A program made the position numbers and the translations under genes. From positions 224,001 to 288,000 of the IMG/VR virus record IMGVR_UViG_3300037501_000111: a stretch of DNA of 64,000 bases; one strand, written 5' to 3'. Position 1 is the stretch's first letter; the number at the start of each line of letters is the position of its first letter. A model generated the notes under the pieces. It worked only from the letters and a program-made list of their open reading frames with translations, ran no database searches and was not told the origin of the DNA. Of the stretch, positions 19,979 to 61,614 are shown one piece after another. Origin of the DNA: a virus (Duplodnaviria; Caudoviricetes).

Positions 19979-19987
19979 AGCAATACC

Positions 19988-45483: not shown

Positions 45484-45783
45484 GGCACAACAGATGCCTT
45501 ATTAGCCCATGAATATTAGTAGTCTCAAATTATATAGTTTATAATGCGATAAGATGCTTTAAGTATTGGGTGAATTATATTAATTTGAATATGGGGTGCC
45601 TATATCCTGTATTGGGGCTAATGGGACGAGAATAGTTATGCAGATCATATCGTGGTCACTATAAATACACCGTCTGAGTGAAGTTTAGACCTTAAGATAA
45701 CGTATAGCCCCCCTTGGGGAGGCGACCTACCACCTCATGCGCACTCCGCCCACACTTTTCCAGCCAGCCTGAAATGAGGGTTT

Positions 45784-45894
45784 TGGCCTGGTTCTTGCAA
45801 TTCAGTTTTGGCATTCTGTTTGCATTTTGCTAATAGCTATACCAACTATATGTAGTATTATTGAATACTAATCATACATGGCATACGTTTTGCA
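45784..45894 (+). promoter_or_regulatory. Three tandem sigma54 (-24/-12) consensus motifs
   Basis: TGGCCTGGTTCTTGCA (45784), TGGCATTCTGTTTGCA (45809), TGGCATACGTTTTGCA (45879); each is GG-N10-GC. Confidence 0.6.
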
Positions 45895-45983
45895 AAAATC
45901 AATGAATATGCCAAGGGCGCAGCGCACTTACCCTGTTGGCTCCCATTCACGGGCTGCACTTACCCAGGATTGGAGGTTGAACG

Positions 45984-46448
45984 ATGAACAAGAGCCAGGT
46001 TTCCGCCATCCTTGCCCGAGATCCGTACGCCGTGACCAAGGCGATCGTGCTTCTCTTCTCCTACCAGACGGTGGGGGAGCGTCGCACATCGACCACGGTG
46101 GAGGACAACGGGGTCGGTTTCAACGCAGTGCACGCCAAGAACGCCTCTTACTGGGCGAGGTGGGTGCTCGGGGTCGGACTGAACACCCCAGCCCACATCG
46201 TGGACGACAAGGTGCGACACTACCTGACCGGCGACAACTGCCGACAGTACCGCACTCTCACCGGCTCCTACCTGGTGGAGGCACGTCGGGTGGCCGCCCA
46301 CTACTGGCGACAACTCGCCGCAGCGGCCAAGGCTAAGGCTAAGGCAAAGCTCGTGCCAATCGTCGAGCACCGCGGCACCGACATGTCGCACATGCTGCGA
46401 CAGTTCGACCGCTTCCAGGTCCACCCCGGCATCACGCAGCATGTCTGA
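45984..46448 (+). CDS. Conserved phage hypothetical protein
   Basis: GGAGG RBS; strong G/C third-position bias; AIxxLxxxQTxxE...T...NGVGF motif. Confidence 0.75.
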   Translation: MNKSQVSAILARDPYAVTKAIVLLFSYQTVGERRTSTTVEDNGVGFNAVHAKNASYWARWVLGVGLNTPAHIVDDKVRHYLTGDNCRQYRTLTGSYLVEARRVAAHYWRQLAAAAKAKAKAKLVPIVEHRGTDMSHMLRQFDRFQVHPGITQHV

Positions 46449-46460
46449 CATGTAGGTTGA

Positions 46461-46495
46461 AAGGGGAGGGTGGCGCTAGCCACCCTCCCCTTCTT
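46461..46495 (+). terminator. Terminator-like hairpin
   Basis: Perfect 14 bp stem AAGGGGAGGGTGGC-GCTA-GCCACCCTCCCCTT. Confidence 0.7.
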
Positions 46496-46505
46496 ACGTT
46501 GTGGG

Positions 46506-46521
46506 CGGCATAGCCATTGCA
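46506..46521 (+). promoter_or_regulatory. Sigma54-like promoter motif
   Basis: CGGCATAGCCATTGCA followed by GGGTGCA. Confidence 0.6.
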
Positions 46522-46633
46522 GGGTGCAAAGCATGTGCCAGGCAAGTTTGCCCCACGTAAACCGCCGCCTCCCATTCACTGCCAGTCCAGACCGAGAAGC
46601 GTCCACACCAACCCGAACGCAGGAGCCACCGCC

Positions 46634-47260
46634 ATGGGTCTCGCTGACATCATCGCGCTCGTTTCGTCTGCTCACGTCGACCCCACCATCGCGCCCGAGA
46701 TTGACGACTCGCCCGAGATCGTCGAGACGGTTATCGGCCGCAATCTCCCCAAGCCTGTGCGAGGCAAGAAGCAGGTCGCTTCCATTCACGACGGCCCCAA
46801 GGTGTTCGGCGTGACCCTGCCCGAACGCAACACGCTGGACGCCAAGAGCTTCCTTCTCGCTGTTCGCAACGCGGGCAAGCGGCCCAACGCCAAGGGAGCC
46901 ATGGTCTTCGACAAGGCCCACGAGCGCAACGATCTCATCTGTGCTATCCACGCTTACGTTGGGTACGATACCCGACGTGATTTCGGCCCGCAGGACACCG
47001 AGGCGCGGGCCAAGGCCCAGCGCGAGCTGAGGGACGGTGTCACCCCTGGTCCCACCAGGGAGGAGAAGCGGAGTGCAGAGCGTAGCCTGTCGGGCTACGT
47101 GGCTGGCATGCCGCGCCCGGCTCAGAAGCTCCTCGCCAATCTCAGGGCTAGGGAGCAAGCGGCAGCCGAGGCGATGATCGACGCCAAGACCCCGGAGGAG
47201 AAGGTAACATACAAGCACCTCCTCGACACCATTCGTAAGGCCATCGACGAGTTGGTCTGA
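46634..47260 (+). CDS. Hypothetical early protein (208 aa)
   Basis: AGGAG RBS before MGLADII; GC3-rich. Confidence 0.75.
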   Translation: MGLADIIALVSSAHVDPTIAPEIDDSPEIVETVIGRNLPKPVRGKKQVASIHDGPKVFGVTLPERNTLDAKSFLLAVRNAGKRPNAKGAMVFDKAHERNDLICAIHAYVGYDTRRDFGPQDTEARAKAQRELRDGVTPGPTREEKRSAERSLSGYVAGMPRPAQKLLANLRAREQAAAEAMIDAKTPEEKVTYKHLLDTIRKAIDELV

Positions 47261-47280
47261 CCCACATAAGGCTCACATCC

Positions 47281-47329
47281 CGAAGGGCTCACACCTGGCG
47301 GGGTGTGGGCCTTTCGCTTTTTCTTTTTT
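47281..47329 (+). terminator. Rho-independent terminator
   Basis: CGAAGGGCTCACACC...GGTGTGGGCCTTTCG followed by a T tract. Confidence 0.8.
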
Positions 47330-47350
47330 CGCGATGTAGGGAAAAGTGGT

Positions 47351-47366
47351 TGGCATAGCCATTGCA
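47351..47366 (+). promoter_or_regulatory. Sigma54-like promoter motif
   Basis: TGGCATAGCCATTGCA followed by GGGTGCA. Confidence 0.65.
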
Positions 47367-47582
47367 GGGTGCATATGCGCGAGAAGAGGCGCCTTCCATT
47401 CACTGGCAATCGGAGTCGAAAGGTGCAGCAACGGACGGCAGCAAGGCAAGCAAGCCAGCGCACTAGGCGCAAGTCGTTCGCTACTGTATGCGACCACACA
47501 CGGCAGCAAGGTTCATACCAGGGGCTTGACCCCAAGTCGTGAATAGGCGCCTCCCATTCACCGCCAGACAGCGAGGTTGAGC

Positions 47583-47753
47583 ATGACAGCGAACGAAGCG
47601 TACGAACGAGGGAAAGCGGACGCCAGGCGTGAGAAGGCGCCCCTCTTCCGCTGCACTCGCCATGGGTACGAGCCCACGGTCGATGATGACATGGCGGATA
47701 ACTGGACGCAAGAAGATCGTTTCCACTACGTCCAGGGTTACGACCACGGCTAG
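47583..47753 (+). CDS. Small protein (56 aa)
   Basis: Manual translation MTANEAYERGKADARREKAP...FHYVQGYDHG; GAGG RBS; follows the motif at 47551. Confidence 0.6.
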   Translation: MTANEAYERGKADARREKAPLFRCTRHGYEPTVDDDMADNWTQEDRFHYVQGYDHG

Positions 47754-47934
47754 CGCCGGTCCTACGAACAACGGTTGAGCCAAGCGGCTCCCATTCACGA
47801 CGAAATCGAGTGCGGAAGTTGCAATCGCCCCTCACGGCAGCAGGCACCAACGGTGCGGCACCATCGAGTGCAAGTCGAGAGGGGCGGTTGCCTCCCATTC
47901 ACAACGAACGTCACCACAACGAAGGAGCATCATC

Positions 47935-48120
47935 ATGAAAAACGTCGATCTCTCGGTCTCTGGCGACACCCTCGTCATCAAGGTCAGCCTCAAGGCGCCC
48001 CGCACGGCCAGCGCCTCTGGCAAGTCGGATGTCATCGCCTCCACGGAGGGGAACGTCAGCATCCCCGGCTTCCCCAACATCAAGCTCGGTCTCAATTGCT
48101 ACACCCCTAAGGGCAAGTAA
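47935..48120 (+). CDS. Small conserved protein, paralogue of 52837..53013
   Basis: AAGGAG RBS; SxSGKSxxIASTEGN...IKLGLN. Confidence 0.8.
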   Translation: MKNVDLSVSGDTLVIKVSLKAPRTASASGKSDVIASTEGNVSIPGFPNIKLGLNCYTPKGK

Positions 48121-48357
48121 CGCCCTTCGGCCAGCTAGTCGCCCCGTGCAATCCCGAGTCTTCTGTCAGGCTCAAAAGGGACACGGGGCGACTAGCCTAG
48201 TTTCTGTTTCTCCAGCGTCACCAAAAGCGCACGGGGCTACGTGCGGCCTTCCAAGGTTTGAGTGACATAAGGGTTCGACTCCCTATGAATCTGTAGCATC
48301 CCGGCCCGTAGCCTTCCATTCACGGAGGCACGGGCTTGAGGTGTTGGAGGTACAACG

Positions 48358-48618
48358 ATGCGCAAGCCTTTCGACATGGCCAACAAGTACGAGTACGGCT
48401 CATACCATGACGACGAACCCACCATCAAAACGCAGGTGCCTGCGTTTCTCCCCAAGGTCATCGTGGATGATGATGCGGAAGACGACGAGCCCACGCTGCC
48501 TAGCTTGCGCAATCCCTTCCACGAAGAGAAGCGCTATCCTGGGATCGGTCTGCTGATCGTCCTGTTCAGCGGAGCACTCTTTTGGGGTGCGGTCTTGTGG
48601 TTCTTCGTCTGGCACTGA
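48358..48618 (+). CDS. Small protein with a C-terminal TM helix
   Basis: GGAGG RBS; duplicated DDEPT(I/L) motif. Confidence 0.65.
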   Translation: MRKPFDMANKYEYGSYHDDEPTIKTQVPAFLPKVIVDDDAEDDEPTLPSLRNPFHEEKRYPGIGLLIVLFSGALFWGAVLWFFVWH

Positions 48619-48807
48619 TGTGCCAAGGCGAGGTGTAGGTAAGAAGGCCACTGGTCAAGAGACCCTTGGCAAGATGCTCGTGTCCCGACATGGTGACATG
48701 TGCAAGCGCAGCGCTAATGCGCTGGAAAAGGTGAGTGCCGTCAAGAGCGCGACTCACAGGCTCCCATTCACTGATCATCGATAGCGAAAGACAACGGAGG
48801 TACGAAC

Positions 48808-49107
48808 ATGGCATATGGCATCTGGGACGTGAGCGGGAAGGTTCTGATTCCCGGCGCTCGTAAAAGCGCGAGCTTCGGTCCTGTCCGCATCGTGGACAAG
48901 GATCGGGCGACTGCCAGCCGGCATCTGGCCGCGCTGCTGAACGAGAAGTTCCGGCGGGACCTGAAAGGGGACCACCGCTTCTCGGCGGGGTACGCCCTGA
49001 TGAACCTGAAGTGGGAAGAGGTGTGCAAGAAGTCCGCCGCTCCCACGACCGCAACGGCGGTCCAGGTGTCGGAGCAGGTGCGTGCTCAGGAAGCAGCGGC
49101 CGAGTGA
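48808..49107 (+). CDS. Hypothetical early protein
   Basis: GGAGG RBS; follows the motif at 48761. Confidence 0.75.
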   Translation: MAYGIWDVSGKVLIPGARKSASFGPVRIVDKDRATASRHLAALLNEKFRRDLKGDHRFSAGYALMNLKWEEVCKKSAAPTTATAVQVSEQVRAQEAAAE

Positions 49108-49150
49108 AGCTCCCTGTTTTCCCATTCATCGCAACACGGAGGACAATGGC

Positions 49151-49369
49151 ATGAGCAACGTAACCGCCGAGCAAGTGACCGCTGGGATTCGCATGGCCGC
49201 AGCAGTGGGGGAAGCCATCCGTGATCTGGGTTCCGTTCCCAGCGGGCATCTGTATGCCAGACTGATGGGACATATGAGCCCGGAGACCTACAACAAGGTC
49301 ATCTCCCTACTGGTCAAGGTGGGTGCGGTCAAAGAGGAGAACCATCTCCTGACATGGGTGGGGAAGTAA
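49151..49369 (+). CDS. Small winged-helix-like hypothetical protein
   Basis: GGAGG RBS; AVGEAIRDLGSVPSGHLYARLMG. Confidence 0.65.
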   Translation: MSNVTAEQVTAGIRMAAAVGEAIRDLGSVPSGHLYARLMGHMSPETYNKVISLLVKVGAVKEENHLLTWVGK

Positions 49370-49464
49370 CAGTCCCATGTTTCGCACGTACGATGATTGG
49401 AAACTTGCTACTCCCCCAGAATACGAGTTTCTTGAGCCGGAGCCTGGGGAGGAAGAAGAAACAC

Positions 49465-49698
49465 ATGAAAACACTGATCCTACTGATGGGTATCCTAACC
49501 CTGATGTGGATGTGCAACTACACGACCCAAAGCCATCCTGACGACTGCTCGGGGACTCAGTGTACCTGGGATTACGGTACCAGGGAGGGGAGTGTGTGCT
49601 GCCCCGAGTCGGCTCCATACTGCGGTAGGGAAGGTACCTCTTGCCCAAAAGGACAATGTTGTGCTAGTCCTGGGGTCAATCTGGACCCGTTGAGGTGA
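49465..49698 (+). CDS. Cys-rich secreted peptide
   Basis: Hydrophobic signal followed by CSGTQC...CCPESAPYCG...CPKGQCC. Confidence 0.6.
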   Translation: MKTLILLMGILTLMWMCNYTTQSHPDDCSGTQCTWDYGTREGSVCCPESAPYCGREGTSCPKGQCCASPGVNLDPLR

Positions 49699-50031
49699 AA
49701 CAAGGTGGCCCTTCGGGGCCATCTCTGTTGAGCAAGGTGGCATCGCTATTACAGGGTACAATGGGCGTGCCAGCGAGTTCAAATGGTCGAAAACTCACCG
49801 TCGCCACGTGCCCAAGTCGGAACCTCGGAAACGGGGAAGGCGTCAACGCGAGCACAGTGCTCGCTCCCATTCACGGGGCCGAGGAATTCAACCCCGATCT
49901 AATTGGTCTCCTATCTGGTGGAGCCCATGAATCCGGCTCATTTTTTACCCCGACCGCACTTACCGCAGCGCCAAAACACCGCAGCAGTAGGGCGTTTGCA
50001 TACATGTAGCATATATGTAGGGAAAGGTAGT

Positions 50032-50047
50032 TGGCATGGTTATGGCA
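50032..50047 (+). promoter_or_regulatory. Sigma54-like promoter motif
   Basis: TGGCATGGTTATGGCA followed by GGGTGCA; upstream ATGTAGGGAAA is shared with the 47351 copy. Confidence 0.5.
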
Positions 50048-50278
50048 GGGTGCAAACGGCGAGCCAACGATACGAACGCAAAAACCGGGCCAAGCGGCCT
50101 CCCATTCACGGCGCATCGCCAGCGAAGGTCGCCGCACCGCAAACGACGCAACGCAAGGTGCAGACATACAGACACGGACCATGTGAGTGGGTATGAGCAA
50201 GAGGGACGGGCTCCCATTCACGGCAAACCGGGCGCCGAAAGCGCCGCAACCCACACACTGACAAGAGGGAAGAAAACA

Positions 50279-50476
50279 ATGGGCAAGATTCTGGTCATCA
50301 TTCTGGCAACGTGTGCGTGTCTCTGGCTGGCCTTCATGCTGGTCGGAACGCGACTGACTAACACGGCCTTCAACGTGCCTGGTACCGAACACACACCCGC
50401 CTTCGGTGTCACCTGGACCATCATCCTGGGCGCGGGGGTGGGGTACGTCATCTATCGCATCGTCAAGGGCAAGTAA
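50279..50476 (+). CDS. Small two-TM membrane protein
   Basis: MGKILVIILATCACLWLAFMLVG...TIILGAGVGYVIYRIVKGK. Confidence 0.7.
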   Translation: MGKILVIILATCACLWLAFMLVGTRLTNTAFNVPGTEHTPAFGVTWTIILGAGVGYVIYRIVKGK

Positions 50477-50489
50477 GAACTAACAAGTT

Positions 50490-50950
50490 TGGGAGCCGAA
50501 AGGTGGACCGTCCACTCTACCAGCTAACGAGAGGCGCAATGCTGATGGGCCATGAGGTATTGGCTTACTGCTGGCGGCTCCCATTCATTGCTACAAATTC
50601 CCAAGGTGGGGCGGTTGAGGAAAGCTGACTCCCCGCCCCAAACAATCCTATAAATTATACTGGGAAGTTCTCGTCAGCATACCTGTCAAAAGCCGAAGGT
50701 GTACTGCTAGCCAGGTGACATGACTCACCTGCGATCTTTTCGACCAAAGGGTAGGAACAATACAGGCTAGGTAGCTACTTCGGTAGTCCAACTGTATGCC
50801 CCAAGGTATAGGCTGATCTCTACCGATTGAGCGGGGTAGGAGACAGGGCAGGTATGCTGACGAGAGCTGGCTAGTCCAGCATAGCTGGAATCCTTTCAGG
50901 CTAGTCCAGCATAGCTGGAATCCTTTCAGGCTAGTCCAGCTGTACCACCA
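50490..50950 (+). ncRNA. Candidate structured non-coding RNA(s)
   Basis: No credible ORF; multiple helices, including an 18 bp long-range pair 50670-50687 / 50847-50864 and a UUCG hairpin. Strand is inferred from the neighbouring genes. Confidence 0.5.
50869..50940 (+). repeat. 30 nt tandem repeat, 2.4 copies
   Basis: GGCTAGTCCAGCATAGCTGGAATCCTTTCA x2 plus GGCTAGTCCAGC; no spacers. Confidence 0.95.
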
Positions 50951-51012
50951 TCCTAGAGATACCTGCGAGGCCTCTATGGAATCCAGACCGAATTACTTAC
51001 AATTCCGAACTG

Positions 51013-51047
51013 GATCTCGACAACACGTAGGGGGATCTAATAGGGGG
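51013..51047. repeat. Second copy of the GATCTCGACAA-N5-AGGGGGATCTA-(A)TAGGGGG element
   Basis: Matches 31880-31913. Confidence 0.85.
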
Positions 51048-51069
51048 TATAGCAGATATACTCCGGAAG

Positions 51070-51276
51070 TTGGGGGATGTGGTAAGCCTGGGCTGGGATG
51101 ACGGCTATCACACGGTCACGGTCTCTCAGGTTCACAAGGACGGGACGGTGGATGTCTTCCGTCCCTACACGGCCACGGCTGACTTTTCATGTGCAGGGCG
51201 AGAGGAGGGATCTTCCTCAGTCATCTGCTACGTGGGAATCGAAGAGGTCAAGGGAACACCGGGTCATGAAGTGTAA
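51070..51276 (+). CDS. Short hypothetical ORF or gene fragment
   Basis: TTG start; VFRPYTATADFS...VICYVGIE; may be N-terminally truncated. Confidence 0.4.
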   Translation: MGDVVSLGWDDGYHTVTVSQVHKDGTVDVFRPYTATADFSCAGREEGSSSVICYVGIEEVKGTPGHEV

Positions 51277-51446
51277 GCAGAGGCTCCCATTCACGGCAAC
51301 CCGAACGCAACGAACGACCAACATAGAACTCGGATTCTGGTTTGGTTTCATTACACTTCGTACAAGTAATCATGCGCAAGATGCAATAGTATGCCCATCT
51401 TGCGCAGAGAAAAACTCCCATTCACGGCATACGGGAAGCGAAAACC

Positions 51447-52079
51447 ATGAGCGATTCCAAAAAGCCGCGAGCCATGACTCCAAAGGGCTTCCTTGCCAAA
51501 GCGACCAGCACCTCGGCTTCCAGCTCTGCCATGGGTTTCTTGAGGCAGTACCGTGAGTATCTCACCACGGGAGAGGTGGCTGAGAAGACCAGCCCCATCA
51601 TCGCCAAGTACGAAGCTGGCGAGCTTCCTGCTTCTCCGGCTCTCAAAGAGATCCAGTATGCCGTGATGACTCACATCATCAAGGCAGAAGAGGACAAGCT
51701 GAATGCTCCCGCTGCCACTGGTGGCGGAGGCGGGACTCGTAAGCCCTGGCGTTGCACGGTCTACGATGCGGCTGGCAATGTCATGAGCCGAACCAACGCC
51801 AAGGGTGAGGTGGAGGATCTCGTCAAGGGGTTCGATCTCTCTCAGAGGGCCAGCGAGTGGGGCGACCGACGACTCTTCGAGGGGACTCACGGCTGGTATG
51901 CCATCGTGGAGCACACCACCATTCCCAACATCTCCAGCCGAATTGAGCGAGGGGATGCGGTGGCACGCATTCTGAAGCAGCCCAAGGGTCCGGTGGTCCA
52001 GGTCAAGAGCAAGAGCACCAAGGCGATCGGCTTTGGAGTCAAAGTCAAGGAAAGCCGGTCCAGTTTCTCCCGAGGCTAA
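51447..52079 (+). CDS. Hypothetical early protein (210 aa)
   Basis: GC3-rich ORF following the motif at 51415. Confidence 0.75.
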   Translation: MSDSKKPRAMTPKGFLAKATSTSASSSAMGFLRQYREYLTTGEVAEKTSPIIAKYEAGELPASPALKEIQYAVMTHIIKAEEDKLNAPAATGGGGGTRKPWRCTVYDAAGNVMSRTNAKGEVEDLVKGFDLSQRASEWGDRRLFEGTHGWYAIVEHTTIPNISSRIERGDAVARILKQPKGPVVQVKSKSTKAIGFGVKVKESRSSFSRG

Positions 52080-52239
52080 CAAGTCAAGCCCAACCACACA
52101 TAGCAGGAGTGGATTGCAGCCTTAGCTGGTCTAACTATCTGAGACTTTAGTGTCGAGTGGTGGGCGAAAGTCTTGGGGCGAGACTATAAAGCGCCCCAAT
52201 TTCTTCGCTCCCATTCACGACTAGCTCGGCGGTAAAGCC

Positions 52240-52701
52240 ATGACGAAGCGAGCATACGACAAGGTTCCTGTCTATAGCCTGCAAGTTGTCAAGGAGCGTA
52301 CTCTCAAGTACCCTGCTGACAAGGTGCCTCACCACATGGCAGCCGCAGCGGTCTTTCAAGCCTACCTGGAAGACAAGGCTTGTGAGCACTTGGCAATCCT
52401 TCTGTTGGATGGGCAATCCAAGATGATTGGAATTGCCACCATCACCATCGGTGGGCTGGATCGCCTGTCTTGCTCAGTCCGAAGTGTCTTTGAGCACGTC
52501 ATTGGTGGGCGGGCTCATGGCTTCATCCTGGGACATAACCATCCCAGCGGTAATGTCCAACCTTCTCCTGAGGATCTGGTTTTCACTCAGAGGGTGATGG
52601 AGGCTAGCGAAATCATTGGGGTTCCCATGCTGGACCACATCATCATCTCGTCTAGCACCAATCGGGACTCTTTGTCTTTCTTGGACAAGGGTTTGTTGTA
52701 A
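52240..52701 (+). CDS. RadC-like JAB domain protein
   Basis: EHLAILLLD, SVRSVF, HNHPSGNVQPSPED, MLDHIII. Confidence 0.9.
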   Translation: MTKRAYDKVPVYSLQVVKERTLKYPADKVPHHMAAAAVFQAYLEDKACEHLAILLLDGQSKMIGIATITIGGLDRLSCSVRSVFEHVIGGRAHGFILGHNHPSGNVQPSPEDLVFTQRVMEASEIIGVPMLDHIIISSSTNRDSLSFLDKGLL

Positions 52702-52836
52702 GGCGGGACGCCTTCGGTAGTTCCCATTCACGGCACATCGCAAACGAAGCTCGGCCCGCTCCCGTCGTCAGATGGGGCGGGCTTGAGGCATTGAAAGAAA
52801 GGGAGCTGTTGCTCCCCATAACACAGGAGCAAAACA

Positions 52837-53013
52837 ATGGAAAACGTCAAGATGTTGGTCAACGGAACGAAGCTCACCATCGAGGTTGATCTCGCCCATC
52901 GTGGTGCGAAGTCTTCCACGGGCAAGACGATTCGAGTGGCGAGCACGGAGGGCAACGTGGAGTGTCCCGAGCACCCGGCCATCAAGGTCGGTCTGAATGT
53001 GTTTACGAAGTAA
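52837..53013 (+). CDS. Small conserved protein, paralogue of 47935..48120
   Basis: Manual translation MENVKMLVNGTKLTIEVDL...SSTGKTIRVASTEGNV...IKVGLNVFTK; AGGAG RBS. Confidence 0.8.
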   Translation: MENVKMLVNGTKLTIEVDLAHRGAKSSTGKTIRVASTEGNVECPEHPAIKVGLNVFTK

Positions 53014-53089
53014 TTCGTAGAACACGCTATCAAGGTTAGTGGCCCCGTAACCTTGATAACAGATGATATATAGTTTCTTAGGAGACTAT

Positions 53090-53430
53090 ATGTCAGAGGA
53101 TTCAAACCGGGGCCAAAAGTTAGAAGCCCATAGAAAAGCAGCTAGAGAATGGGCAAAGCGAGACTACGAGAAAAACAGGAGATGCTAGAGTTGTCATGCG
53201 AAAGAAATGGCGACATGAGCACCCTGAATATGTCTTGCTAAGAAACGCCAAGAGGCGTGCAAAAGAAAAAGGGTTAGAGTTTACCCTAACGGCAGAAGAT
53301 ATCCACATACCTGAAGTTTGTCCTTTACTCGGCATTTTTATTCACCGTAATCTGAATGGCGATAAAGCAACGCCTAACAGTCCGACGTTGGATAGGATTG
53401 ATTCAAGTAAAGGTTATACGAAGGATGGAG
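53090..53430 (+). pseudogene. Truncated, frameshifted HNH-like endonuclease
   Basis: AKRRAKEKGLEFTLT...CPLLG...SPTLDRIDSSKGYTKD; the usual NV...N C-terminus is missing and the frame runs into the next gene. Confidence 0.65.
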
Positions 53431-53438
53431 AGAGAACG

Positions 53439-53699
53439 ATGATCGCAATGCAGTCCGGTATGAAAGGTACGCTGACCGTCCAAGGAATCCCTTGGATGTA
53501 CCTCAGCTACAACTCCAAGGTGGGCTTTGGTTTTGGCCGACATGCCATCATCTTTGACCTTCTGGCCAATTGCTACGTCATCAAAGAAAACGGAGAGACC
53601 GTTTTCGGATCAGGTTCCGTCTCAGAATGTTTGGAGCAAGCGGCTCCGATCGTCTGGGACTACTACGCCAACCAATTCACACCGTCCTGGGAAAAATGA
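53439..53699 (+). CDS. Hypothetical protein
   Basis: GGAG RBS before MIAMQSG. Confidence 0.6.
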   Translation: MIAMQSGMKGTLTVQGIPWMYLSYNSKVGFGFGRHAIIFDLLANCYVIKENGETVFGSGSVSECLEQAAPIVWDYYANQFTPSWEK

Positions 53700-54040
53700 A
53701 ACAGAACATGATTTGCTACAACTGCAATATTGTGCTTGGTGAATGCAATGTTCGTTCCGAGAACTACACACGAGTTGGACTCCAAGTGGAGCGTTTCATT
53801 CGTGAGTATTCTCAATGCGAGATTCGCAGCGGCCAGAATGGTGGCCTCTTCAAGCGCTCGGCTGCGGGCGAAACGGAGACTCCCGAGGAAAAGAAAAAGC
53901 GGGAGTACAACGAGAACCCAAAGAACTTCGAGGCTATCAGGCCAGTATACTGTGAAGCCTGTGGGTGCACGTACAAGAATGGATGTAGCACACACCCATC
54001 CAATGTACAGATTCCACTGGTGAAACCGGCCAAGAAGTAA
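53696..54040 (+). CDS. Cys-rich hypothetical protein
   Basis: ATGA-coupled start MKQNMICYNC; CEAC...C..H. Confidence 0.6.
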   Translation: MKQNMICYNCNIVLGECNVRSENYTRVGLQVERFIREYSQCEIRSGQNGGLFKRSAAGETETPEEKKKREYNENPKNFEAIRPVYCEACGCTYKNGCSTHPSNVQIPLVKPAKK

Positions 54041-54129
54041 CGAACGAACGGCGCTCCCATTCACGGGGCGGCGGTGACGAAAACCGGGCAATCGCCCCAA
54101 CAAGAAACAAAGCAACAGGAGAATCGAAC

Positions 54130-54576
54130 ATGGCATGGGACAAGACGCCCGCTCAAAAGGATGCGGTCAAGGCGTTTCTGGTGACGGTGGATGGCAAGGT
54201 GGACCTGGAGGCCAGCGTGGAGAAGTACCGCGCGGTGTGTCGCCAGTATCTCGCCGGGCAGACGGCAGAGCAGGATCTGATCGCTCTCTGCATGGCGGAG
54301 CTGTTCGACCAGGCTCGTGGTGGCACCCGCAACATCGACTACATCAAGAGCCAGACGGTTCAGCTCATGGCCAAGCGCCACCCGGAGCTGGCTGATCCGA
54401 CTCTCTTCGCCATGCTGAGCGGTCGAGTGGAGGACTACCTCCACGCCAACTGCGACCAGCCGGCGGTGGCGGCCAAGGGCAACAAGCCTGCTCGTGAGGC
54501 CATCACGGGTCGGACGTACGCCAAGAAGATGGGCCAGGGCGGTGGCTTCTATCGGAAGTCCGACTACAAGGGCTGA
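54130..54576 (+). CDS. Hypothetical early protein, paralogue of 62559..62978
   Basis: AGGAG RBS; highly GC3-rich. Confidence 0.8.
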   Translation: MAWDKTPAQKDAVKAFLVTVDGKVDLEASVEKYRAVCRQYLAGQTAEQDLIALCMAELFDQARGGTRNIDYIKSQTVQLMAKRHPELADPTLFAMLSGRVEDYLHANCDQPAVAAKGNKPAREAITGRTYAKKMGQGGGFYRKSDYKG

Positions 54577-54862
54577 GGATAAGTGACCCCAAGGTGGAGC
54601 TGATCCACTTTCTCAAGAAATGGCTCCATCACAAGGCAGCCGATATTCTGCCAGCCCATCGATGATCTGGTGGAACGCCTGAAGGCTTGCTGGACTCGTC
54701 AGTGGTGTAAGGAAAACACGCCCAAGCATTGAGGCGTGGAACGGAATCGGGTTTGGTGTAAGAGGCTGGCCAGTTGACAACGGATCAACGCAGCTAATCC
54801 CAAGTCAAAAACACCCTTTGTTTCCTGATTGGAATAGCGCCACTCTCCCTGACAAAGACAGA

Positions 54863-54955
54863 GGAACGGTTAGCCAAATGGTCATGGTGAGTACGTTCGG
54901 GAGCATCTAGTGGAACTGACCAACCACTAAGACTATGGGTTCGACTCCCATTCAC
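54863..54955 (+). ncRNA. Degenerate tRNA-like element (long variable arm type)
   Basis: D-arm-like TAGCCAAATGGTCATGG, 6 bp variable stem, perfect T arm ATGGG-TTCGACT-CCCAT; acceptor and anticodon stems do not pair. Confidence 0.4.
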
Positions 54956-55011
54956 GGACAAGCGTTCGTGATGCTAGATGAGAGTGACGCTATTCTGCTC
55001 AGGAGATAGTC

Positions 55012-55371
55012 ATGTGCCCGCACAACACTGACAGCCATATCGAGTTATCCAAACTTCCCGCCCTCATCAAAGAGAAGGGATGGTCATGCTCAGAGATTCG
55101 TGGTTACTACGCCCACACTGAGCCTGGATGTTGGTTGCAGGGAGATTCTGGTTACGAGCGTAACGGTACTGCATTCCAAGTCATCGCACGAGAAGATGAC
55201 TTGAAAGTCAGAGTTGGATGGCCAGGACAATTTACCACCACCTATACTTGCTTCTCTGCAATGCAGGTGATGTGGTGGTTGGAGAGGATTCTGGCTTGTC
55301 GCACCTACAATGGTGAGCAGCGTAATGAATGCAAGCGCTGTGACCAAGAACCAGCTAATCAAGTGAGCTGA
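55012..55371 (+). CDS. Hypothetical protein
   Basis: AGGAG RBS; follows the motif at 54945. Confidence 0.65.
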   Translation: MCPHNTDSHIELSKLPALIKEKGWSCSEIRGYYAHTEPGCWLQGDSGYERNGTAFQVIAREDDLKVRVGWPGQFTTTYTCFSAMQVMWWLERILACRTYNGEQRNECKRCDQEPANQVS

Positions 55372-55372
55372 G

Positions 55373-55624
55373 ATGAAAGAGCTATCTTCTATATTCTTTC
55401 TTTTAGTTGGGTGTTCAGCTAGCTCTGAGCCAATCGTTCACGATGGTCAGGATAGTGGATGTGATGATGCTTTCACAATGGAGGATGCTGAAACGTCCTC
55501 TTCTCGCGCGAACGAGTCAACTACCTCAGATGCATCATCAGGTGGTGGCAACAACACCAACCCTCCAACTCAAGGTTGTTGCAAGTGGTACAACAAAACT
55601 TGCGTACAACCATGTGTTAGATAA
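55373..55624 (+). CDS. Putative lipoprotein (may extend to 55730 via a frameshift)
   Basis: Lipobox LLVGC; D/S/A-rich linker; Cys-rich end. Confidence 0.5.
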   Translation: MKELSSIFFLLVGCSASSEPIVHDGQDSGCDDAFTMEDAETSSSRANESTTSDASSGGGNNTNPPTQGCCKWYNKTCVQPCVR

Positions 55625-55774
55625 AGCACAACTGGTGGACCAGATCACTGGGGAGAACATGTGTTGTGCAGTGGAACAATGGGCTACCAGAGAGTCTGGC
55701 CTGATGAAGTTCCACATAAAGACAAGTTGACTCTTGCAGTGGTTACAAGACGCATTACAGAAGTAAAGGCCGTC

Positions 55775-56038
55775 ATGAAGGAATCGTTTTACTTGGCTCT
55801 CGGTCTTTGGCTGCTGGTAGTTGGTTGCCTGAAACCACTTCCTTCTGAGACCACTCCAGTAATGATAGTTGAGATCAAACCTCTTCCTCCAACTAAGGTC
55901 TATGGTGAGATTGTTTCAGTAGAGATAATCGAATCGCCTATCAAGACCTGGCTATCTAAAGAAGAGATAGAAGAGAAACGCCTTCAACAAAAAAATCCTT
56001 GTGCGAAAGGCGACCCACTCTGCGATGTCATTCCCTAA
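55775..56038 (+). CDS. Putative lipoprotein
   Basis: MKESFYLALGLWLLVVGC signal; C-terminal CAKGDPLC. Confidence 0.55.
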   Translation: MKESFYLALGLWLLVVGCLKPLPSETTPVMIVEIKPLPPTKVYGEIVSVEIIESPIKTWLSKEEIEEKRLQQKNPCAKGDPLCDVIP

Positions 56039-56201
56039 CCTCACACACGTAGCCATCAGACAGGGTGGAGTTGTATAATCCTTACCTTCTCCTAATAGAC
56101 ACCTCACTGGTACGAACACAACGGAGATATTTGCTCCTATTGTGAGGAACACAATTACCAGTGAGGGGCTCCCATTCACCGCACGAACGAGGAACGAAAC
56201 C

Positions 56202-56594
56202 ATGAGTGATATCATCGAATTGACGTACAAGAATGATGAGGCTGAGGAAATTACCCTGAAGGTTCCGTCCAAGATGGAAGTCTGCTATGACTGTGAAGGT
56301 CATGGCACGGTTCTCAACGAATCGATGCGGTATCATGCTTATACCTCGGAAGACGAGGAGATGCATGATCCGGAATTCCTTGAGGAATACTTCAAGCGGG
56401 GCGGAATCTATGATGTCCAGTGTCCGACTTGCAAGGGCAAGAATGTCCTTGCGGTTCCTGACGAAGAGGCCATCAACAAGAACGAAGCACTCAAGGCCGA
56501 ATACGAGAAGTACACGGAGTGGAAGGAAGATTCGGACCGTGCTGATGCAGAGTATGAGGCTCTGTGTCGGATGGAACGGATGATGGGCTGCTAA
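56202..56594 (+). CDS. DnaJ-type CxxCxGxG zinc-finger protein
   Basis: VCYDCEGHG, QCPTCKGK; GAGG RBS. Confidence 0.7.
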   Translation: MSDIIELTYKNDEAEEITLKVPSKMEVCYDCEGHGTVLNESMRYHAYTSEDEEMHDPEFLEEYFKRGGIYDVQCPTCKGKNVLAVPDEEAINKNEALKAEYEKYTEWKEDSDRADAEYEALCRMERMMGC

Positions 56595-56885
56595 ATGGAC
56601 ATCCATGAGCTGTCGCTAACGATGGGTCGTCCCGTGGCGGTAATGGGTTTGGATGGCGACAACGATAAGCACATTATGGTTGTTGTTTGTTTGAATCCGC
56701 CCGAAGCCTACGTCAACAAAGACAACAAGCATATTGGTCACATCATCGCAGCCAAAGTAGTCCCGGTCAAGGATGCTGCAATCCTTTCGGAACGAGAACA
56801 TACGGCAGTTATCAGGGCACACTTTGCCTTGAAGGTTGCTTTAGAGGGCGCATATGCTGTACCACCTCCTGATCAATACTGCTAA
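56595..56885 (+). CDS. Hypothetical protein
   Basis: Starts immediately after the upstream stop. Confidence 0.6.
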   Translation: MDIHELSLTMGRPVAVMGLDGDNDKHIMVVVCLNPPEAYVNKDNKHIGHIIAAKVVPVKDAAILSEREHTAVIRAHFALKVALEGAYAVPPPDQYC

Positions 56886-57063
56886 TCTCATCTACCTCGC
56901 ATCCTATACTGCCAAAGACATCAAGTTTTTGCGATGGTTGACGATTGCTGGCATCATCCTTCTGATTCCCTACTACCTGTATACTATGGTCTTTAGGAAG
57001 CAACCGCCTCCAAAGAGTCACATACAGATGGTATCTTTTGGCAAGATCCATCTGGTCATCTAG
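56854..57063 (+). CDS. Small membrane protein resembling the Popeye-domain N-terminal TM segment
   Basis: ANLIYLASYTAKDIKFLRWLTIAGIILLIPYY. Confidence 0.5.
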   Translation: MLYHLLINTANLIYLASYTAKDIKFLRWLTIAGIILLIPYYLYTMVFRKQPPPKSHIQMVSFGKIHLVI

Positions 57064-57141
57064 TCCATATTTCTGGATGGTACAACCGAGTCCAAATCAG
57101 CAATCGCTATGACACTCTCTGGTCTTACGCTCAAAATTGAG

Positions 57142-57282
57142 ATGTCCAAGAAGAAGAAGAAGAAACACGAGCCGCCTAAAAAGCATCGTAAGTACATTCT
57201 CATTGAGGGGTATGTACTCAATGAAAAAACTGGTGAGTTGGAACCATACTATAAAAAAGTATATCCTAAACACAAGGTATAG
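57142..57282 (+). CDS. Small Lys-rich protein (46 aa)
   Basis: Manual translation MSKKKKKKHEPPKKHRKYILIEGYVLNEKTGELEPYYKKVYPKHKV. Confidence 0.45.
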   Translation: MSKKKKKKHEPPKKHRKYILIEGYVLNEKTGELEPYYKKVYPKHKV

Positions 57283-57317
57283 CGGCTCCCATTCACCGCA
57301 CGTCGGGAGCAACCGTC

Positions 57318-57599
57318 ATGAGCGAACTACGAAGGAGCACTATCAGACGTCTCCGAGAAGAACGAAATGAGCTTCAAAAGAGAGTCTACGCTCTCAATGA
57401 CTCTATCAAAGAGTTGCAACTACTAGAAGACAAGGAACAACATCCTTGTACATGTGTAAAGCTCAATGGTGACATTGAGATTTATAACATGCAAGAACAA
57501 GAGCGACGTGGAAGGGTTCCTTTGGACTTAGGATTGGTCTCAGAGTGCCTAAGTGCTCGTAAAGACTGCCCTATCTGTAAGGGAACTGGCAAGCCATGA
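57318..57599 (+). CDS. Coiled-coil plus zinc-finger hypothetical protein
   Basis: GGGAG RBS; CTC...CPICKGTG. Confidence 0.65.
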   Translation: MSELRRSTIRRLREERNELQKRVYALNDSIKELQLLEDKEQHPCTCVKLNGDIEIYNMQEQERRGRVPLDLGLVSECLSARKDCPICKGTGKP

Positions 57600-58183
57600 A
57601 TCATTGGTTTATCAGCGATACCCACTTTGGGCATGCGAACATCATCAAATATTCCAATCGTCCTTTCAAGGATGTGGATGAGATGAATGAGTTGATGATC
57701 CAAGAGTGGAACAAGTTGGTCAAGCCAAATGATGCGGTCTACCATAACGGTGACTTTGCATTCATGACTTTCGACAAGTTTCGCCTGATGCATCGGCGCC
57801 TCAATGGAGATATCTATCTCCAGCTTGGTAATCATGACAAGATGATTATCCAGCATAAGACGGATCTTCTCAAGCAAGGGAAGATTGTCAGCATCGAAAA
57901 CTACCGCGAGTTGAAGATAGGTGGTCACATGATCGTCCTCTTTCACTACGGTCAAAGAGTGTGGAACAAGTCGCATCACGGAAGTATCCATCTCTATGGA
58001 CATTCCCACGGTTCATTGCCACCATTTGGCAAGTCAGTAGATGCCGGTGTAGACTGCAAAGAGATCACTCACGAGTATCGGCCGATTCACTTGGACGAAG
58101 TACTCAAGTACATGTCTAAGCGAGAACAATCAGTAGTCGATCATCACGGTACTCGTGACGAAATGGGCAGCAAGGAAGACTGA
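57596..58183 (+). CDS. Calcineurin-like metallophosphoesterase
   Basis: SDTHFGH, GDF, GNHD, LFHY, GHSH. Confidence 0.9.
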   Translation: MNHWFISDTHFGHANIIKYSNRPFKDVDEMNELMIQEWNKLVKPNDAVYHNGDFAFMTFDKFRLMHRRLNGDIYLQLGNHDKMIIQHKTDLLKQGKIVSIENYRELKIGGHMIVLFHYGQRVWNKSHHGSIHLYGHSHGSLPPFGKSVDAGVDCKEITHEYRPIHLDEVLKYMSKREQSVVDHHGTRDEMGSKED

Positions 58184-58184
58184 G

Positions 58185-58391
58185 ATGACTCATTCCGACT
58201 TCAAGATTGGCGAAACATTCTTCACATCCAATGGATGGCAATGGTTGTGTACCGACAAGGGAACACGAGTGATTGTTGCCGTCCATATAGAAGAAGGACG
58301 TGACCCATCTTGGTTGAGCGGGCCTCCTTACGCAGTAGCTGAGGTGGTATTCGATGAGCACGACTTCTCTTCCTGCACCCAAACGCCATAA
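58185..58391 (+). CDS. Conserved hypothetical protein
   Basis: MTHSDFKIG...WLCTDKGTR...WLSGPPYAVAEVVFDEHD. Confidence 0.7.
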   Translation: MTHSDFKIGETFFTSNGWQWLCTDKGTRVIVAVHIEEGRDPSWLSGPPYAVAEVVFDEHDFSSCTQTP

Positions 58392-58426
58392 AAACAAACC
58401 TAATCTCAACCTGTGCCGGTCATTCC

Positions 58427-58674
58427 ATGAGTAACGTTCTCAAAATCGAAAACCATAAGTCAATTCTGAGTGCTTCTCGAATCGTTTGGTCAGAAGGCTG
58501 CGCCCCATGCGTGTGGTTCTTCGTGATAACGGTGGAGAATTCGTTACTCATCTGGAAGTTTTGGACTTGGAGGATGGTACTTTCAAGCACAGCGATTTTC
58601 TACATGGTCACTACTTCGGCAAAGATGGTAATAAGGCTATGGCCGATTACCAAGAGCGCCGGGCGAAGCTGTAG
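58427..58674 (+). pseudogene. Hypothetical protein split by one apparent indel
   Basis: Adding one T at 58485-58487 joins MSNVLK...SRIV to LVRRLRPMRVVLRDNGGEFVTH...AKL. Confidence 0.5.
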
Positions 58675-58707
58675 GCTCCCATTCACGGTTCGCGGTTGGA
58701 GGGCGGC

Positions 58708-59535
58708 ATGAGCAAGTTTCTTCTGACTGACTGGGAAATCAATGGGTACGATGACTCTGACTTCATGGCATCGTACTATGATGATAAGACCAATACCATC
58801 GGATTCACCTGCTACGGCAGTACCCGATATCCATCTGCTACTGTTATCGGTCATAACACCGATGGTTCTACTTCGGTAGTGGTGGATGGTGAGAATCTTC
58901 TCATGCCCAACTCTGATACGGTTGAGAAGGCTCGTTTGGTTCTGGAAGAAAACATCTTTCAACGTCTCACTAAGACTGACAAGCGCTTGGTGGATGAACC
59001 TGATGTGGAGGATCTCTCTAAGGGCCTTCGTGTTCGGCTGACTGCCAATGCTCGTATGCAGGTTCGCGCTCTGGAGCCTTGCAATAAGTGCAATGGTTCT
59101 GGTAAATGGGTCAATCCTCGACGAGAGACTGACATTCGTGACTGTTTCTCTTGTGGTGGTTCTGGTCAGCACAAGGGCGCCAAGGTCAAAGGCGAGGATG
59201 GTAAGCAGGCTTACGAGACTCTGCCTGCCGGACTTACAGGTACCGTGGTGGATTGGAACAGCTTCGGCCAGTTCTACGCTTCGGGCTATAACAAGCCCAA
59301 TCGACACAACACTACAGTTCAGTTCCGTACAGACCATGGCAAGGTAGTCCGGGCTAGTCTGTCCAAGTTGCGGCTGGATCGCGACTATCAACCTGCTGAG
59401 TCCCTTCGTGAGAGAGCTAAGAAGCTCTCTTTCGATTATCAGTTCAGCGCTCTGTATCCTCGTTTTGCGTGGGATACTCGGAACTATGCGATGCAGGTAG
59501 CAAAAAAACATGAGAACCAGATTCATTCTGCCTAA
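58708..59535 (+). CDS. Hypothetical protein with a DnaJ-type zinc finger
   Basis: CNKCNGSG...CFSCGGSG; GGAGG RBS. Confidence 0.75.
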   Translation: MSKFLLTDWEINGYDDSDFMASYYDDKTNTIGFTCYGSTRYPSATVIGHNTDGSTSVVVDGENLLMPNSDTVEKARLVLEENIFQRLTKTDKRLVDEPDVEDLSKGLRVRLTANARMQVRALEPCNKCNGSGKWVNPRRETDIRDCFSCGGSGQHKGAKVKGEDGKQAYETLPAGLTGTVVDWNSFGQFYASGYNKPNRHNTTVQFRTDHGKVVRASLSKLRLDRDYQPAESLRERAKKLSFDYQFSALYPRFAWDTRNYAMQVAKKHENQIHSA

Positions 59536-59737
59536 TGGTAAGACAACAATTTCATCCAAAACGTATCTTACGGCTTGGAGAAAGTTGTATCGTCCTATCG
59601 AAAAGGCGACCGATTCCAAGTGCTTTGGGTTTGACCCTGGATTATCTTTCGTAACGGAAGATGGCAAGTACGTTTGGGGTCTAGGGAAATATGAAGCAAT
59701 TCGCCTTAGTGAAGCTCTTCAGCTAAGACGCGGCTAA
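59510..59737 (+). CDS. Hypothetical protein
   Basis: 75 aa ORF overlapping the upstream gene. Confidence 0.55.
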   Translation: MRTRFILPNGKTTISSKTYLTAWRKLYRPIEKATDSKCFGFDPGLSFVTEDGKYVWGLGKYEAIRLSEALQLRRG

Positions 59738-59752
59738 ATCTGTAGGGTTGTC

Positions 59753-60469
59753 ATGAAGTTCGATCTTTCCAAGACGTTCGATGTTACCAAGATTACTCAC
59801 AAAAGCCGTATCCTGGTGGGTGCGGTTCAGGTCAACAAGCCCTTCATCTACCACGATGCCAGTTACGAATGTGCGGCGTGGTGGGAAGATCGTGAAGCTC
59901 AGACTGGAGTGTATCCGGTCTATCTTTCTCGAAGATATCACCACCCCAAGCATCTGACCATCACGGCTCACATCAAGGCTAAAGTGGTGGACGATTACTT
60001 TCCTGGCCTCTGGGGAGGTATACCCTACAAGCCCAAGCACATTGGGGAGGAGCGAATCATTCGCCAGGGTATCGAGGTGGTGGATGCCATCGAACGGACT
60101 GGCAACTCTCCGGGTAGTGACCTGGATTGGTTCATCCACCCTTCGTGGTGGAAGGTGTTCACGGATGAGGCTGAGGCCGAGCTTCGTGAGAACTACCGCA
60201 GACTGTCGGAATTCTGGAACGAGTGGAATAATCTCGACCCCCAGACCTTCAAGGCAAAGATGGATGGTCGCTGGGAATTTGATGATGAGTTTCGTTCCAA
60301 GATTGGAATGATTGCTCACTTCGGAGGTCACTTGGAAAAGTGGGCACGTCGAATCGAGAAGATTAACTGGTGCTCTCAGTATCACAAAGTGGGTGGAAAG
60401 TACGATACGGAGTATCAGCGCAACAACTTCGCTCAGAATACTGAGTGGACTAAGGCACTCGAAATCTAA
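59753..60469 (+). CDS. Hypothetical protein (238 aa)
   Basis: Long ORF with consistent codon bias. Confidence 0.7.
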   Translation: MKFDLSKTFDVTKITHKSRILVGAVQVNKPFIYHDASYECAAWWEDREAQTGVYPVYLSRRYHHPKHLTITAHIKAKVVDDYFPGLWGGIPYKPKHIGEERIIRQGIEVVDAIERTGNSPGSDLDWFIHPSWWKVFTDEAEAELRENYRRLSEFWNEWNNLDPQTFKAKMDGRWEFDDEFRSKIGMIAHFGGHLEKWARRIEKINWCSQYHKVGGKYDTEYQRNNFAQNTEWTKALEI

Positions 60470-60477
60470 GCATACAC

Positions 60478-60720
60478 ATGAAAGCATACATTTTCCTGAA
60501 GGATGGTCAGAAAGAGGAACAACTTCTCGCCAAAGTGGAGAATTTGGAAGTTGTTCCTTGTGGTATCTATGTTATTGATGGTGTAGAGTACCAGTACACC
60601 GGGCAACCCACCTTCATCATCGAGAAGACCCCTTATCTATATGGTGGTAAACATCAATTGACTAGGGTGGAATTCTCTGTGGAGAAGGTTGGAGAGGTCA
60701 AGCGACAAGGCGACATGTAA
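60478..60720 (+). CDS. Hypothetical protein
   Basis: 80 aa co-oriented ORF. Confidence 0.55.
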   Translation: MKAYIFLKDGQKEEQLLAKVENLEVVPCGIYVIDGVEYQYTGQPTFIIEKTPYLYGGKHQLTRVEFSVEKVGEVKRQGDM

Positions 60721-60878
60721 GGTGCGTGAATTCTTCATTGTATTCAGTGTATTGATGGCATTATTTACATGGTGGTGTGGCTGGACAGGCCAACCTCGTA
60801 AAACATGCGGCCTCAACATGCTGAATACTTTGCTCAGCTTGGAACTTATTAGAGTGTACGGAGAGAAAGAAAAAGACA

Positions 60879-61070
60879 ATGGGTGATAAAGTCAAGGGCT
60901 GGCATAGTCGTAAACCTAAGAAGCACGGACAGTATTCCGAAAAGAAGAATCGTCCATTGCGCCCTGATCAAGACAAACGTAATCCCTCAAAGGATTCACG
61001 TGGAGATTACAGAAATGGCCGTTATGTTCAGTGGGATTCGGACGAGCGCGAGTACGATTTCGGAGACTAG
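60879..61070 (+). CDS. Small basic hypothetical protein
   Basis: 63 aa; GGAG upstream. Confidence 0.5.
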   Translation: MGDKVKGWHSRKPKKHGQYSEKKNRPLRPDQDKRNPSKDSRGDYRNGRYVQWDSDEREYDFGD

Positions 61071-61305
61071 CCATAATGAAAGACGCAATTTGGGTCTTCA
61101 AGTCTTTCGGTTTTAGGTCCGGAATACTCTTTGTCCTTGGTTCCATCGGTACGAAAATCAGGCGCCTTTTCGTCTGATGAAGAGGCTCGGCAAGTCGCCG
61201 CCCAGTTTGGCATTTTTCCTGGACAAACCAGGCATATACTGAACTATCAATTCAACGAAGAAAACGAAAACAGAACGTTACACTAGTCTCAACAAAGGAA
61301 ATAAC

Positions 61306-61614
61306 ATGCGATTCACAACGATCAGCGGTTCGATTTACGAGGTGGATCGAAAGAACAAGAAGATTCGACGCCTCAATGGCAATGCCGATCCTACCCCTCG
61401 TCAGGGCAAAGATGGTGAGTGGCGTGGTTATCTCAACGAGCTTCACATTGAAGTTGGTCAGCCTGTCGTTATTGCATGGGCCGATGCTCATCAACTAACA
61501 GAGGAAACCATGTCTCTTCTTGGAATCTCCGAGAAGGAAGCACCTCCTCCTATGCCTGGTAGAACTACTTTCACTTCCCGAGTGGTAGAGATCGACGACA
61601 AAGTTTACCACTAA
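61306..61614 (+). CDS. Conserved phage hypothetical protein
   Basis: AAGGA RBS; FTTxSGSIYEVD...IRR...TPR...TSxV motif. Confidence 0.7.
   Translation: MRFTTISGSIYEVDRKNKKIRRLNGNADPTPRQGKDGEWRGYLNELHIEVGQPVVIAWADAHQLTEETMSLLGISEKEAPPPMPGRTTFTSRVVEIDDKVYH

Follow-up and report, generated by a model that had tools for sequence, protein, structure and literature searches.

Mirror-paired sigma54-type sites at the head of a megaphage early region and their recurrence in unrelated phages

The window analysed here is the 64,000-nucleotide (nt) stretch covering positions 224,001 to 288,000 of the IMG/VR virus record IMGVR_UViG_3300037501_000111 (Duplodnaviria; Caudoviricetes), and its early region carries seven plus-strand sigma54-type GG-N10-GC sites at 45784, 45809, 45879, 46506, 47351, 49738 and 50032. 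Most of them do not stand alone but form the left arm of a 35-bp dyad, TGGCAY-N5-TTGCA-N3-TGCAA-N5-RTGCCA. Our analysis demonstrated that the sites are genuine and conserved with sigma54 sequence specificity, and that the dyad is a phage-wide and phage-only module that is not peculiar to the phage of the window. As to function, the sequence evidence gives about an even chance to the reading that the dyads are host sigma54-type promoters of symmetric and probably bidirectional design, from which transcription resumes past each terminator. The first-pass annotation of this DNA had proposed six such motifs as sigma54 promoters driving early cassettes. All six were recovered and the site at 49738 was added, and the proposal was upheld in its specificity, in the position of the sites at the heads of units in a putative early block and in their conservation; its layout of simple one-way promoters was not, as mirror pairs were found instead in which the outward-facing arm often equals the gene-facing one in quality.

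The invariant GG and GC were exactly 10 nt apart in all seven window sites, except for a G-to-A variant at -13 in the site at 49738. The sigma54 consensus has been given as TGGCACG-N4-TTGCW (Barrios et al. 1999 as cited in PMC3844500; Samuels et al. 2013, PMC3844500), and a search with TGGCAYN5TTGCW allowing at most one mismatch returned 18 window matches in comparison to 4.8 in shuffled sequence. A scoring matrix was built from 29 intergenic Salmonella sites validated by chromatin immunoprecipitation (ChIP; PMC3844500 Table 3), and at a threshold of 13 bits or more it gave 12 window matches where 1.5 were expected. Six window sites agreed with the 35-bp four-box template at 15 or more of its 20 box positions, against an expectation of 0.16. 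The best window arms scored 18.7–19.3 of a possible 20.2 bits and the median arm across phages scored 19.3, while the references glnA, pspA and hypA scored 14.7, 17.2 and 18.6, respectively, placing the phage sites within the range of validated promoters. The continuation GGGTGCA, previously noted after the sites at 46506, 47351 and 50032, was confirmed, as was the prefix ATGTAGGGAAA shared by two of them (47334 and 50015). This tail consists of the 3-nt centre and the beginning of a minus-strand mirror site (46525, 49757 and 50051; weaker at 45898), indicating that the unit is the 35-bp dyad.

Position conservation was computed on 132 arms from 66 non-identical dyads. GG was retained in 99–100% and GC in 98–99% of these arms, and C-23 was relaxed to T in 12%, as in real sigma54 promoters. 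Positions -21 and -20, which lay outside every search pattern, held a pyrimidine in 97% and a purine in 93% of arms, respectively; the 29 ChIP-validated Salmonella sites have C17/T11/G1 at -21 (97% pyrimidine) and G19/A10 at -20 (100% purine) (PMC3844500 Table 3). The flanking constraints of the two boxes differed, with a pyrimidine and then a purine following the -24 box and no preference following the -12 box. This difference points to two distinct reading surfaces, the situation in sigma54, and not to a single domain present in four copies.

Mirror pairs with a centre of 2–4 nt numbered 77, the centre being 3 nt in 62 of them, and the reverse arrangement of arms showed no preferred gap. Perfect solo arms that lacked a partner even at a lenient threshold were also found (38 in comparison to 1.1 expected), and of the 18 situated beside dyads, 17 had a pyrimidine at -21 and 17 a purine at -20. 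The maintenance of isolated half-sites indicates that a single arm is a functional unit, as an obligate dimer would not keep them. Solo-arm orientation with respect to the next open reading frame (ORF; 20 co-oriented and 18 anti-oriented) was discarded, because the crude ORF calls used pick spurious reverse frames in GC-rich DNA and mislabel even the window site at 45879. An enrichment of ATGTAG was too weak for a claim alone. Symmetry of this kind might also belong to a folded nucleic acid, either a hairpin in RNA or a cruciform in DNA like that of the N4 early promoters, as TTGCA-NNN-TGCAA could fold into a 5-bp stem closed by a 3-nt loop, with complementary outer boxes as well. Such a function was rejected, since spacer complementarity was 0.293 in comparison to 0.322 ± 0.023 for shuffled partners, box variants were uncompensated, fold z-scores ranged from +0.4 to -1.35 and there was no Rfam match. 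A chance pattern was excluded by the shuffle, template, matrix and distribution counts, and folding and chance taken together are very improbable explanations of the dyads.

The perfect four-box dyad was found in 33 viral contigs of 4.8–480 kb with a G+C content of 33–59%, and 596 Gb of bacterial and archaeal genomes contained no copy of it. Carriers with the same boxes included unrelated phages spanning 40–480 kb and 33–59% G+C, and tandem arrays of 3–5 dyads were common. Each phage has one cluster, which in megaphages lies at the head of a GC-rich early block and in small genomes mostly at the one place where gene direction diverges. Six complete genomes of 40–47 kb had a single array each, located in five of the six at the sole point from which genes diverge outwards; four of these genomes form one family, while the remaining two are unrelated to that family and to each other. 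The small-genome arrays lay inside non-coding regions of 0.9–1.5 kb containing other repeats. At G007 19930–20820 (L052/L053) and G026 17470–19000 (L055) the arrays stood beside three copies of the repeat CGTTGGTTAAAGCTGACCA and three of the palindrome ACCACAAGCCGTTGTGGT. The long non-coding regions that hold the arrays in small phages may be replication origins. In about ten contigs (including L006, L022, L027, L035, L037, L041, L050, L001 and L007) the array was at most 250 bp from a contig end, and these may be real ends of the genome or places where the assembly broke at the repeats.

Conservation was also evident among close relatives of the window. The first early protein identified two megaphage relatives, a 209.8-kb contig (73% identity) and a complete 480.8-kb contig (58%), and both have sites at matching positions, including three tandem sites before the first gene, a dyad past the first terminator and copies extended by (A)TGTAGGGAAARGTRGT. 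All four boxes were invariant, and the spacers variable, in the intergenic alignment of greater divergence (68% identity), where compensatory changes held the pairing of the terminator stem. Among 23 sites in the three related phages, the gene-facing arm always matched at 9 or more of 10 positions; in about five of them the mirror arm was degenerate or shifted. Of the 13 sites of at least 15 bits in the complete 480.8-kb relative (G001), 11 fell within 4.6 kb, where the G+C content climbs from 41% to 58%. Four other large phages had one tight cluster each, and a reversed control pattern gave no matches.

The candidate readers of these sites were surveyed in the carriers themselves. The first-pass annotation had suggested searching for a phage rpoN gene or a bacterial enhancer-binding protein (bEBP), and neither turned up among the large ORFs of the window, in the complete relative of 480.8 kb or among 35 further carrier records; no RpoN domain was detected in this set, and the 36 phage records contained no PF00158 protein and only two weak generic AAA+ matches. 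A multisubunit polymerase (Rpb1/Rpb2) was absent from the carrier phages, with search controls positive. Far from the early block, five megaphages (G001, at 343480–343587, G002, G008, G017 and G025) each encode one sigma70-family protein of about 214 aa that matches sigma70 region 2 (E 1e-6 to 1e-9) and is a candidate reader of the CCCAT box described below or of late promoters. As the megaphages carry only this sigma70-family factor and no multisubunit polymerase of their own, they rely on the host core enzyme.

The CCCAT box, which the first-pass annotation had seen 27–52 nt after four of its sites, was located 29–113 nt after C-12, and in 12 of 16 cases at 40–59 nt. This arrangement bears on a different reading, in which the dyad is an operator or activator site for a dimeric or tetrameric protein, encoded by the phage or carried in its virion, that controls CCCAT promoters situated some 50 nt downstream, while any resemblance to sigma54 sites is accidental. 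The dyad symmetry with its tight centre, the fairly regular spacing to the CCCAT box, the tandem arrays in divergent non-coding control regions beside iteron-like repeats and the lack of the dyad in cellular genomes would all suit an operator, as would the mirror arm being conserved as well as the forward arm at internal sites. Against an operator, no family common to the unrelated carrier groups emerged at BLAST 1e-4 or phmmer 1e-3 and no helix-turn-helix or repressor gene flanked the arrays. A 61-aa family (window 47935–48120, plus strand) was considered as a common reader and rejected, as it occurs in only 5–6 of the 36 records. An operator is also difficult to reconcile with the solo arms that are maintained, and with small phages, in which dyads are present and CCCAT boxes are absent. 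Operator specificities usually differ among unrelated phages, whereas here the 20 box positions together with Y-21 and R-20 are identical across unrelated phages. Since the same boxes recur in this way and the sigma54 consensus is in use across phyla (PMC12316311), sigma54 is favoured over a phage operator, and we regard the operator reading as unlikely.

The 61-aa protein itself (M.NV...G..L.I.V......S.SGK...IAST.GN......GLN.Y) is shared by the megaphage early block and an unrelated family of 41–45 kb phages, in which its gene lies 2–3 kb from the dyad arrays, and it had no Pfam match.

Sigma54 as the reader is indicated by the combination of Y-21/R-20, graded conservation, solo arms, the lack of a common phage protein and the lack of a phage RpoN, bEBP or multisubunit polymerase. 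If the dyads are host sigma54 promoters, the host sigma54 RNA polymerase holoenzyme would dock on either arm, and the gene-facing arm would start each immediate-early unit, the first gene being preceded by three such sites in tandem and each terminator followed by a dyad. The mirror arm would fire the opposite way, which could be useful where the module sits between divergent gene blocks. Start sites are predicted about 12 nt after each GC, so that with a 3-nt centre the opposite-strand starts would be 18 bp apart. An ATPase activator would be needed, most simply a host bEBP, and the resulting cascade may run from immediate-early units transcribed from dyads to CCCAT-box-dependent expression further on. 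The gene-facing arm being always kept while the mirror arm is sometimes degenerate fits promoters of immediate-early units.

Several observations weigh against these promoters. Most sites are mirror pairs, whereas a sigma54 promoter is a single directional site, and although solo directional arms exist too, pairing about a fixed centre of 2–4 nt is foreign to known sigma54 promoters; the two arms also cannot hold two holoenzymes simultaneously. The reverse arms at 46525 and 49757 face the upstream terminator, yet are as well kept as the forward arms. Under the strict Salmonella matrix four of the seven window plus-strand arms scored below 13 bits, and a G or C stood at -10 in 39% of arms, G at that position being absent from the 29 Salmonella sites. 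Sigma54 promoters need an AAA+ activator, whereas none is encoded in the carrier records and no enhancer site was recognised. Additionally, a CCCAT box follows every dyad, so that the dyad could instead control that element from upstream.

There are four terminator-like hairpins between 45.9 and 50.1 kb, and each has a site 17–85 nt downstream. The first-pass annotation had placed two sites directly after terminators; those at 46506 and 47351 do lie there, and those at 49738 and 50032 were found to do so too; deeper in the early block there is no further site, and convincing terminators are likewise lacking. With each internal dyad just past a terminator, the host sigma54 holoenzyme may instead bind and start no transcription, acting with the terminators as a roadblock or insulator, soaking up sigma54 or contributing to a replication origin. 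Silent binding of this kind would share all of the sequence evidence for sigma54 and would suit the absence of an encoded activator, as the closed sigma54 complex is both stable and silent; the symmetry suggests that orientation is irrelevant, the small-phage arrays occupy origin-like repeat regions and some loci are several hundred bases from the next gene. However, the few sites per genome would make a weak sink, and loss affects mirror arms in some cases but gene-facing arms in none. Solo arms such as that at G007 20731, about 75 nt upstream of a ribosome-binding site and start codon, and the three tandem sites before the first early gene, which resemble strong early promoters elsewhere, also speak for initiation. 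We hold silent binding to be doubtful.

The sigma54 polymerase is the sole bacterial holoenzyme unable to start unaided. A further version of the promoter reading is that the mirror pair is a phage invention that captures the host sigma54 polymerase and is fired without a conventional enhancer-binding ATPase, either by means of a new kind of activator supplied by the phage or its virion or by virtue of a symmetric -12 region that would itself open more easily. We consider this version rather improbable.

The sites of the window are arranged as follows. The first of the three tandem sites preceding the first early gene is the plus-strand solo arm TGGCCTGGTTCTTGCA (45784–45799), which lies at the boundary from 40% to 60% G+C and is kept at L008 5802 and L009 5790. 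The dyad at 45809–45843 combines TGGCATTCTGTTTGCA, its perfect gene-facing arm, with a mirror arm that is degenerate, agreeing with the template at 15 of 20 box positions where its ortholog at L008 5827 has 18. At 45879–45913, the last site ahead of the first early gene (ATG 45984), a plus-strand arm of 18.7 bits, TGGCATACGTTTTGCA, is paired with a minus-strand arm of 14.2 bits (18 of 20). Before and between these tandem sites, CCCACACTTTTCCAG (45749–45763) and TGTAGTATTATTGAATAC (45850–45868) are invariant or nearly so in all three megaphages.

A plus-strand terminator-like hairpin with a 12-bp stem (46463–46490) closes the first unit, its stem pairing kept by compensatory changes in the relatives, and is followed by the dyad at 46506–46540, in which CGGCATAGCCATTGCA and the minus-strand arm TGGCACATGCTTTGCA (19.3 of 20.2 bits) agree with the template at 19 of 20 positions and the four boxes are invariant across the three phages with differing spacers. 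The strongest intrinsic terminator of the region (47281–47316, plus strand; 16 pairs followed by a T run) precedes the asymmetric 5' extension ATGTAGGGAAAAGTGGT (47334–47350, plus strand), which abuts the -24 box and is also found at L008 7482, L008 12369 and L009 10295. The plus-strand site that it adjoins (47351–47373) consists of the gene-facing arm TGGCATAGCCATTGCA (18.7 bits) and GGGTGCA, and has lost the outer mirror box. Further on, a short GC hairpin, TGGCCC-TTCG-GGGCCA (49706–49721), lies 17 nt 5' of the dyad at 49738–49772, where TGGCATCGCTATTACA, with A for G at -13, is followed by GGGTACA and paired with the 17.2-bit minus-strand arm TGGCACGCCCATTGTA (18 of 20). A second copy of the 5' extension, ATGTAGGGAAAGGTAGT (50015–50031, plus strand), leads into the dyad TGGCATGGTTATGGCA ggg TGCAAACGGCGAGCCA at 50032–50066 (18 of 20).

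The CCCAT box after the site at 45879 is CTCCCATTCAC (45940–45950, plus strand), and the first boxes after the other dyads are at 46569, 47393, 49864 and 50099. Both dyads with the ATGTAGGGAAA extension head leaders of about 200 nt (47377–47583 and 50058–50279) with two CCCAT boxes each before the first ORF (47394/47552 and 50100/50212), and the same layout is present in L008 (7567/7731). Between 49738 and 49946, a unit of about 180 nt comprises a dyad, a CCCAT box (49864) and a hairpin with a T6 run (about 49911–49937) and has no convincing ORF; it may be a small RNA gene.

The G+C content of the window is about 40% up to about 45.9 kb and 55–62% beyond, the GC-rich part being a run of small plus-strand ORFs, most of which have the CTCCCATTCAC motif upstream; TCCCATTCA has 22 exact plus-strand copies within 45941–61880 and one elsewhere. 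This jump coincides exactly with the first sigma54-type cluster both in the window (45900; about 40% to about 60%) and in G001 (about 420000; 41% to 58%), and the G+C content declines slowly over the 60 kb past the step. The step may be the reason for the IMG/VR 'provirus' label on these contigs. The myxobacterial setting envisaged by the first-pass annotation found no support, as nothing points there and the phage has about 40% G+C outside the early block. In the host search, GMP reductase had no relative among genome contigs, the structural protein of the window had no match and the first early protein had one marginal match only. Protein atlas neighbours were viral, the cultured phages nearest to the carrier proteins were less than 40% identical, and a blastn comparison of the window against GenBank phages gave no match. 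Neither Rfam families nor tRNAs were found.

Unrelated uncultivated phages of 40–480 kb carry the same 35-bp module as the mark of their master control region. If host sigma54 reads the dyads, early expression of these phages would be tied to an activator and perhaps to host physiology, and the module would provide a simple sequence flag for early regions and for rpoN-bearing hosts in metagenomic phages. If something else reads them, there exists a reader that copies sigma54 specificity. Should ATPase-free capture prove true, many unrelated phages would begin their immediate-early transcription with a host polymerase that is supposedly tightly locked. Our literature search found no described natural sigma54 early promoters or bEBPs in phages and no description of symmetric sigma54 promoters; sigma54-type promoters may have been predicted in some Pseudomonas phages.

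In comparison to bacterial sigma54 -24/-12 promoters, the phage sites share the GG and GC 10 nt apart, T-26, C-23, A-22, Y-21, R-20, the TT before GC and A-11, have scores equal to validated promoters and are intergenic and upstream of co-oriented genes. They differ in being head-to-head 35-bp dyads, arrayed 3–5 times and on phage DNA only, in having no enhancer or activator in evidence and in the frequent G or C at -10 to -8. The A1, A2 and A3 promoters of T7 are tandem strong early promoters for the host polymerase, of the sigma70 type, activator-free and not symmetric. The window resembles them in its three close sites right before the first early gene and in needing the host polymerase for the first transcripts, whereas its sites are sigma54-type and symmetric. 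The lambda operators OR1-3 and OL1-3 are 17-bp sites that are specific to immunity groups and adjoin repressor genes. Several dyad-symmetric sites in tandem within a divergent control region are common to both systems; unlike the lambda sites, the phage dyads have no adjacent regulator gene, keep the same sequence in unrelated phages and occur as half-sites alone. Symmetric bidirectional sigma70 promoters have core elements that coincide on opposite strands and polymerase orientations that are mutually exclusive, with divergent starts most often 18 bp apart, and are over-represented in DNA gained by horizontal transfer (Warman et al., bioRxiv 10.1101/2020.01.31.928960; PMC12825309). The phage elements are likewise matched on both strands at a preferred offset, with predicted starts 18 bp apart. 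In contrast to these sigma70 promoters with one overlapping -10 hexamer, the phage dyad is made of two complete, non-overlapping sigma54-type sites, which may fire in both directions.

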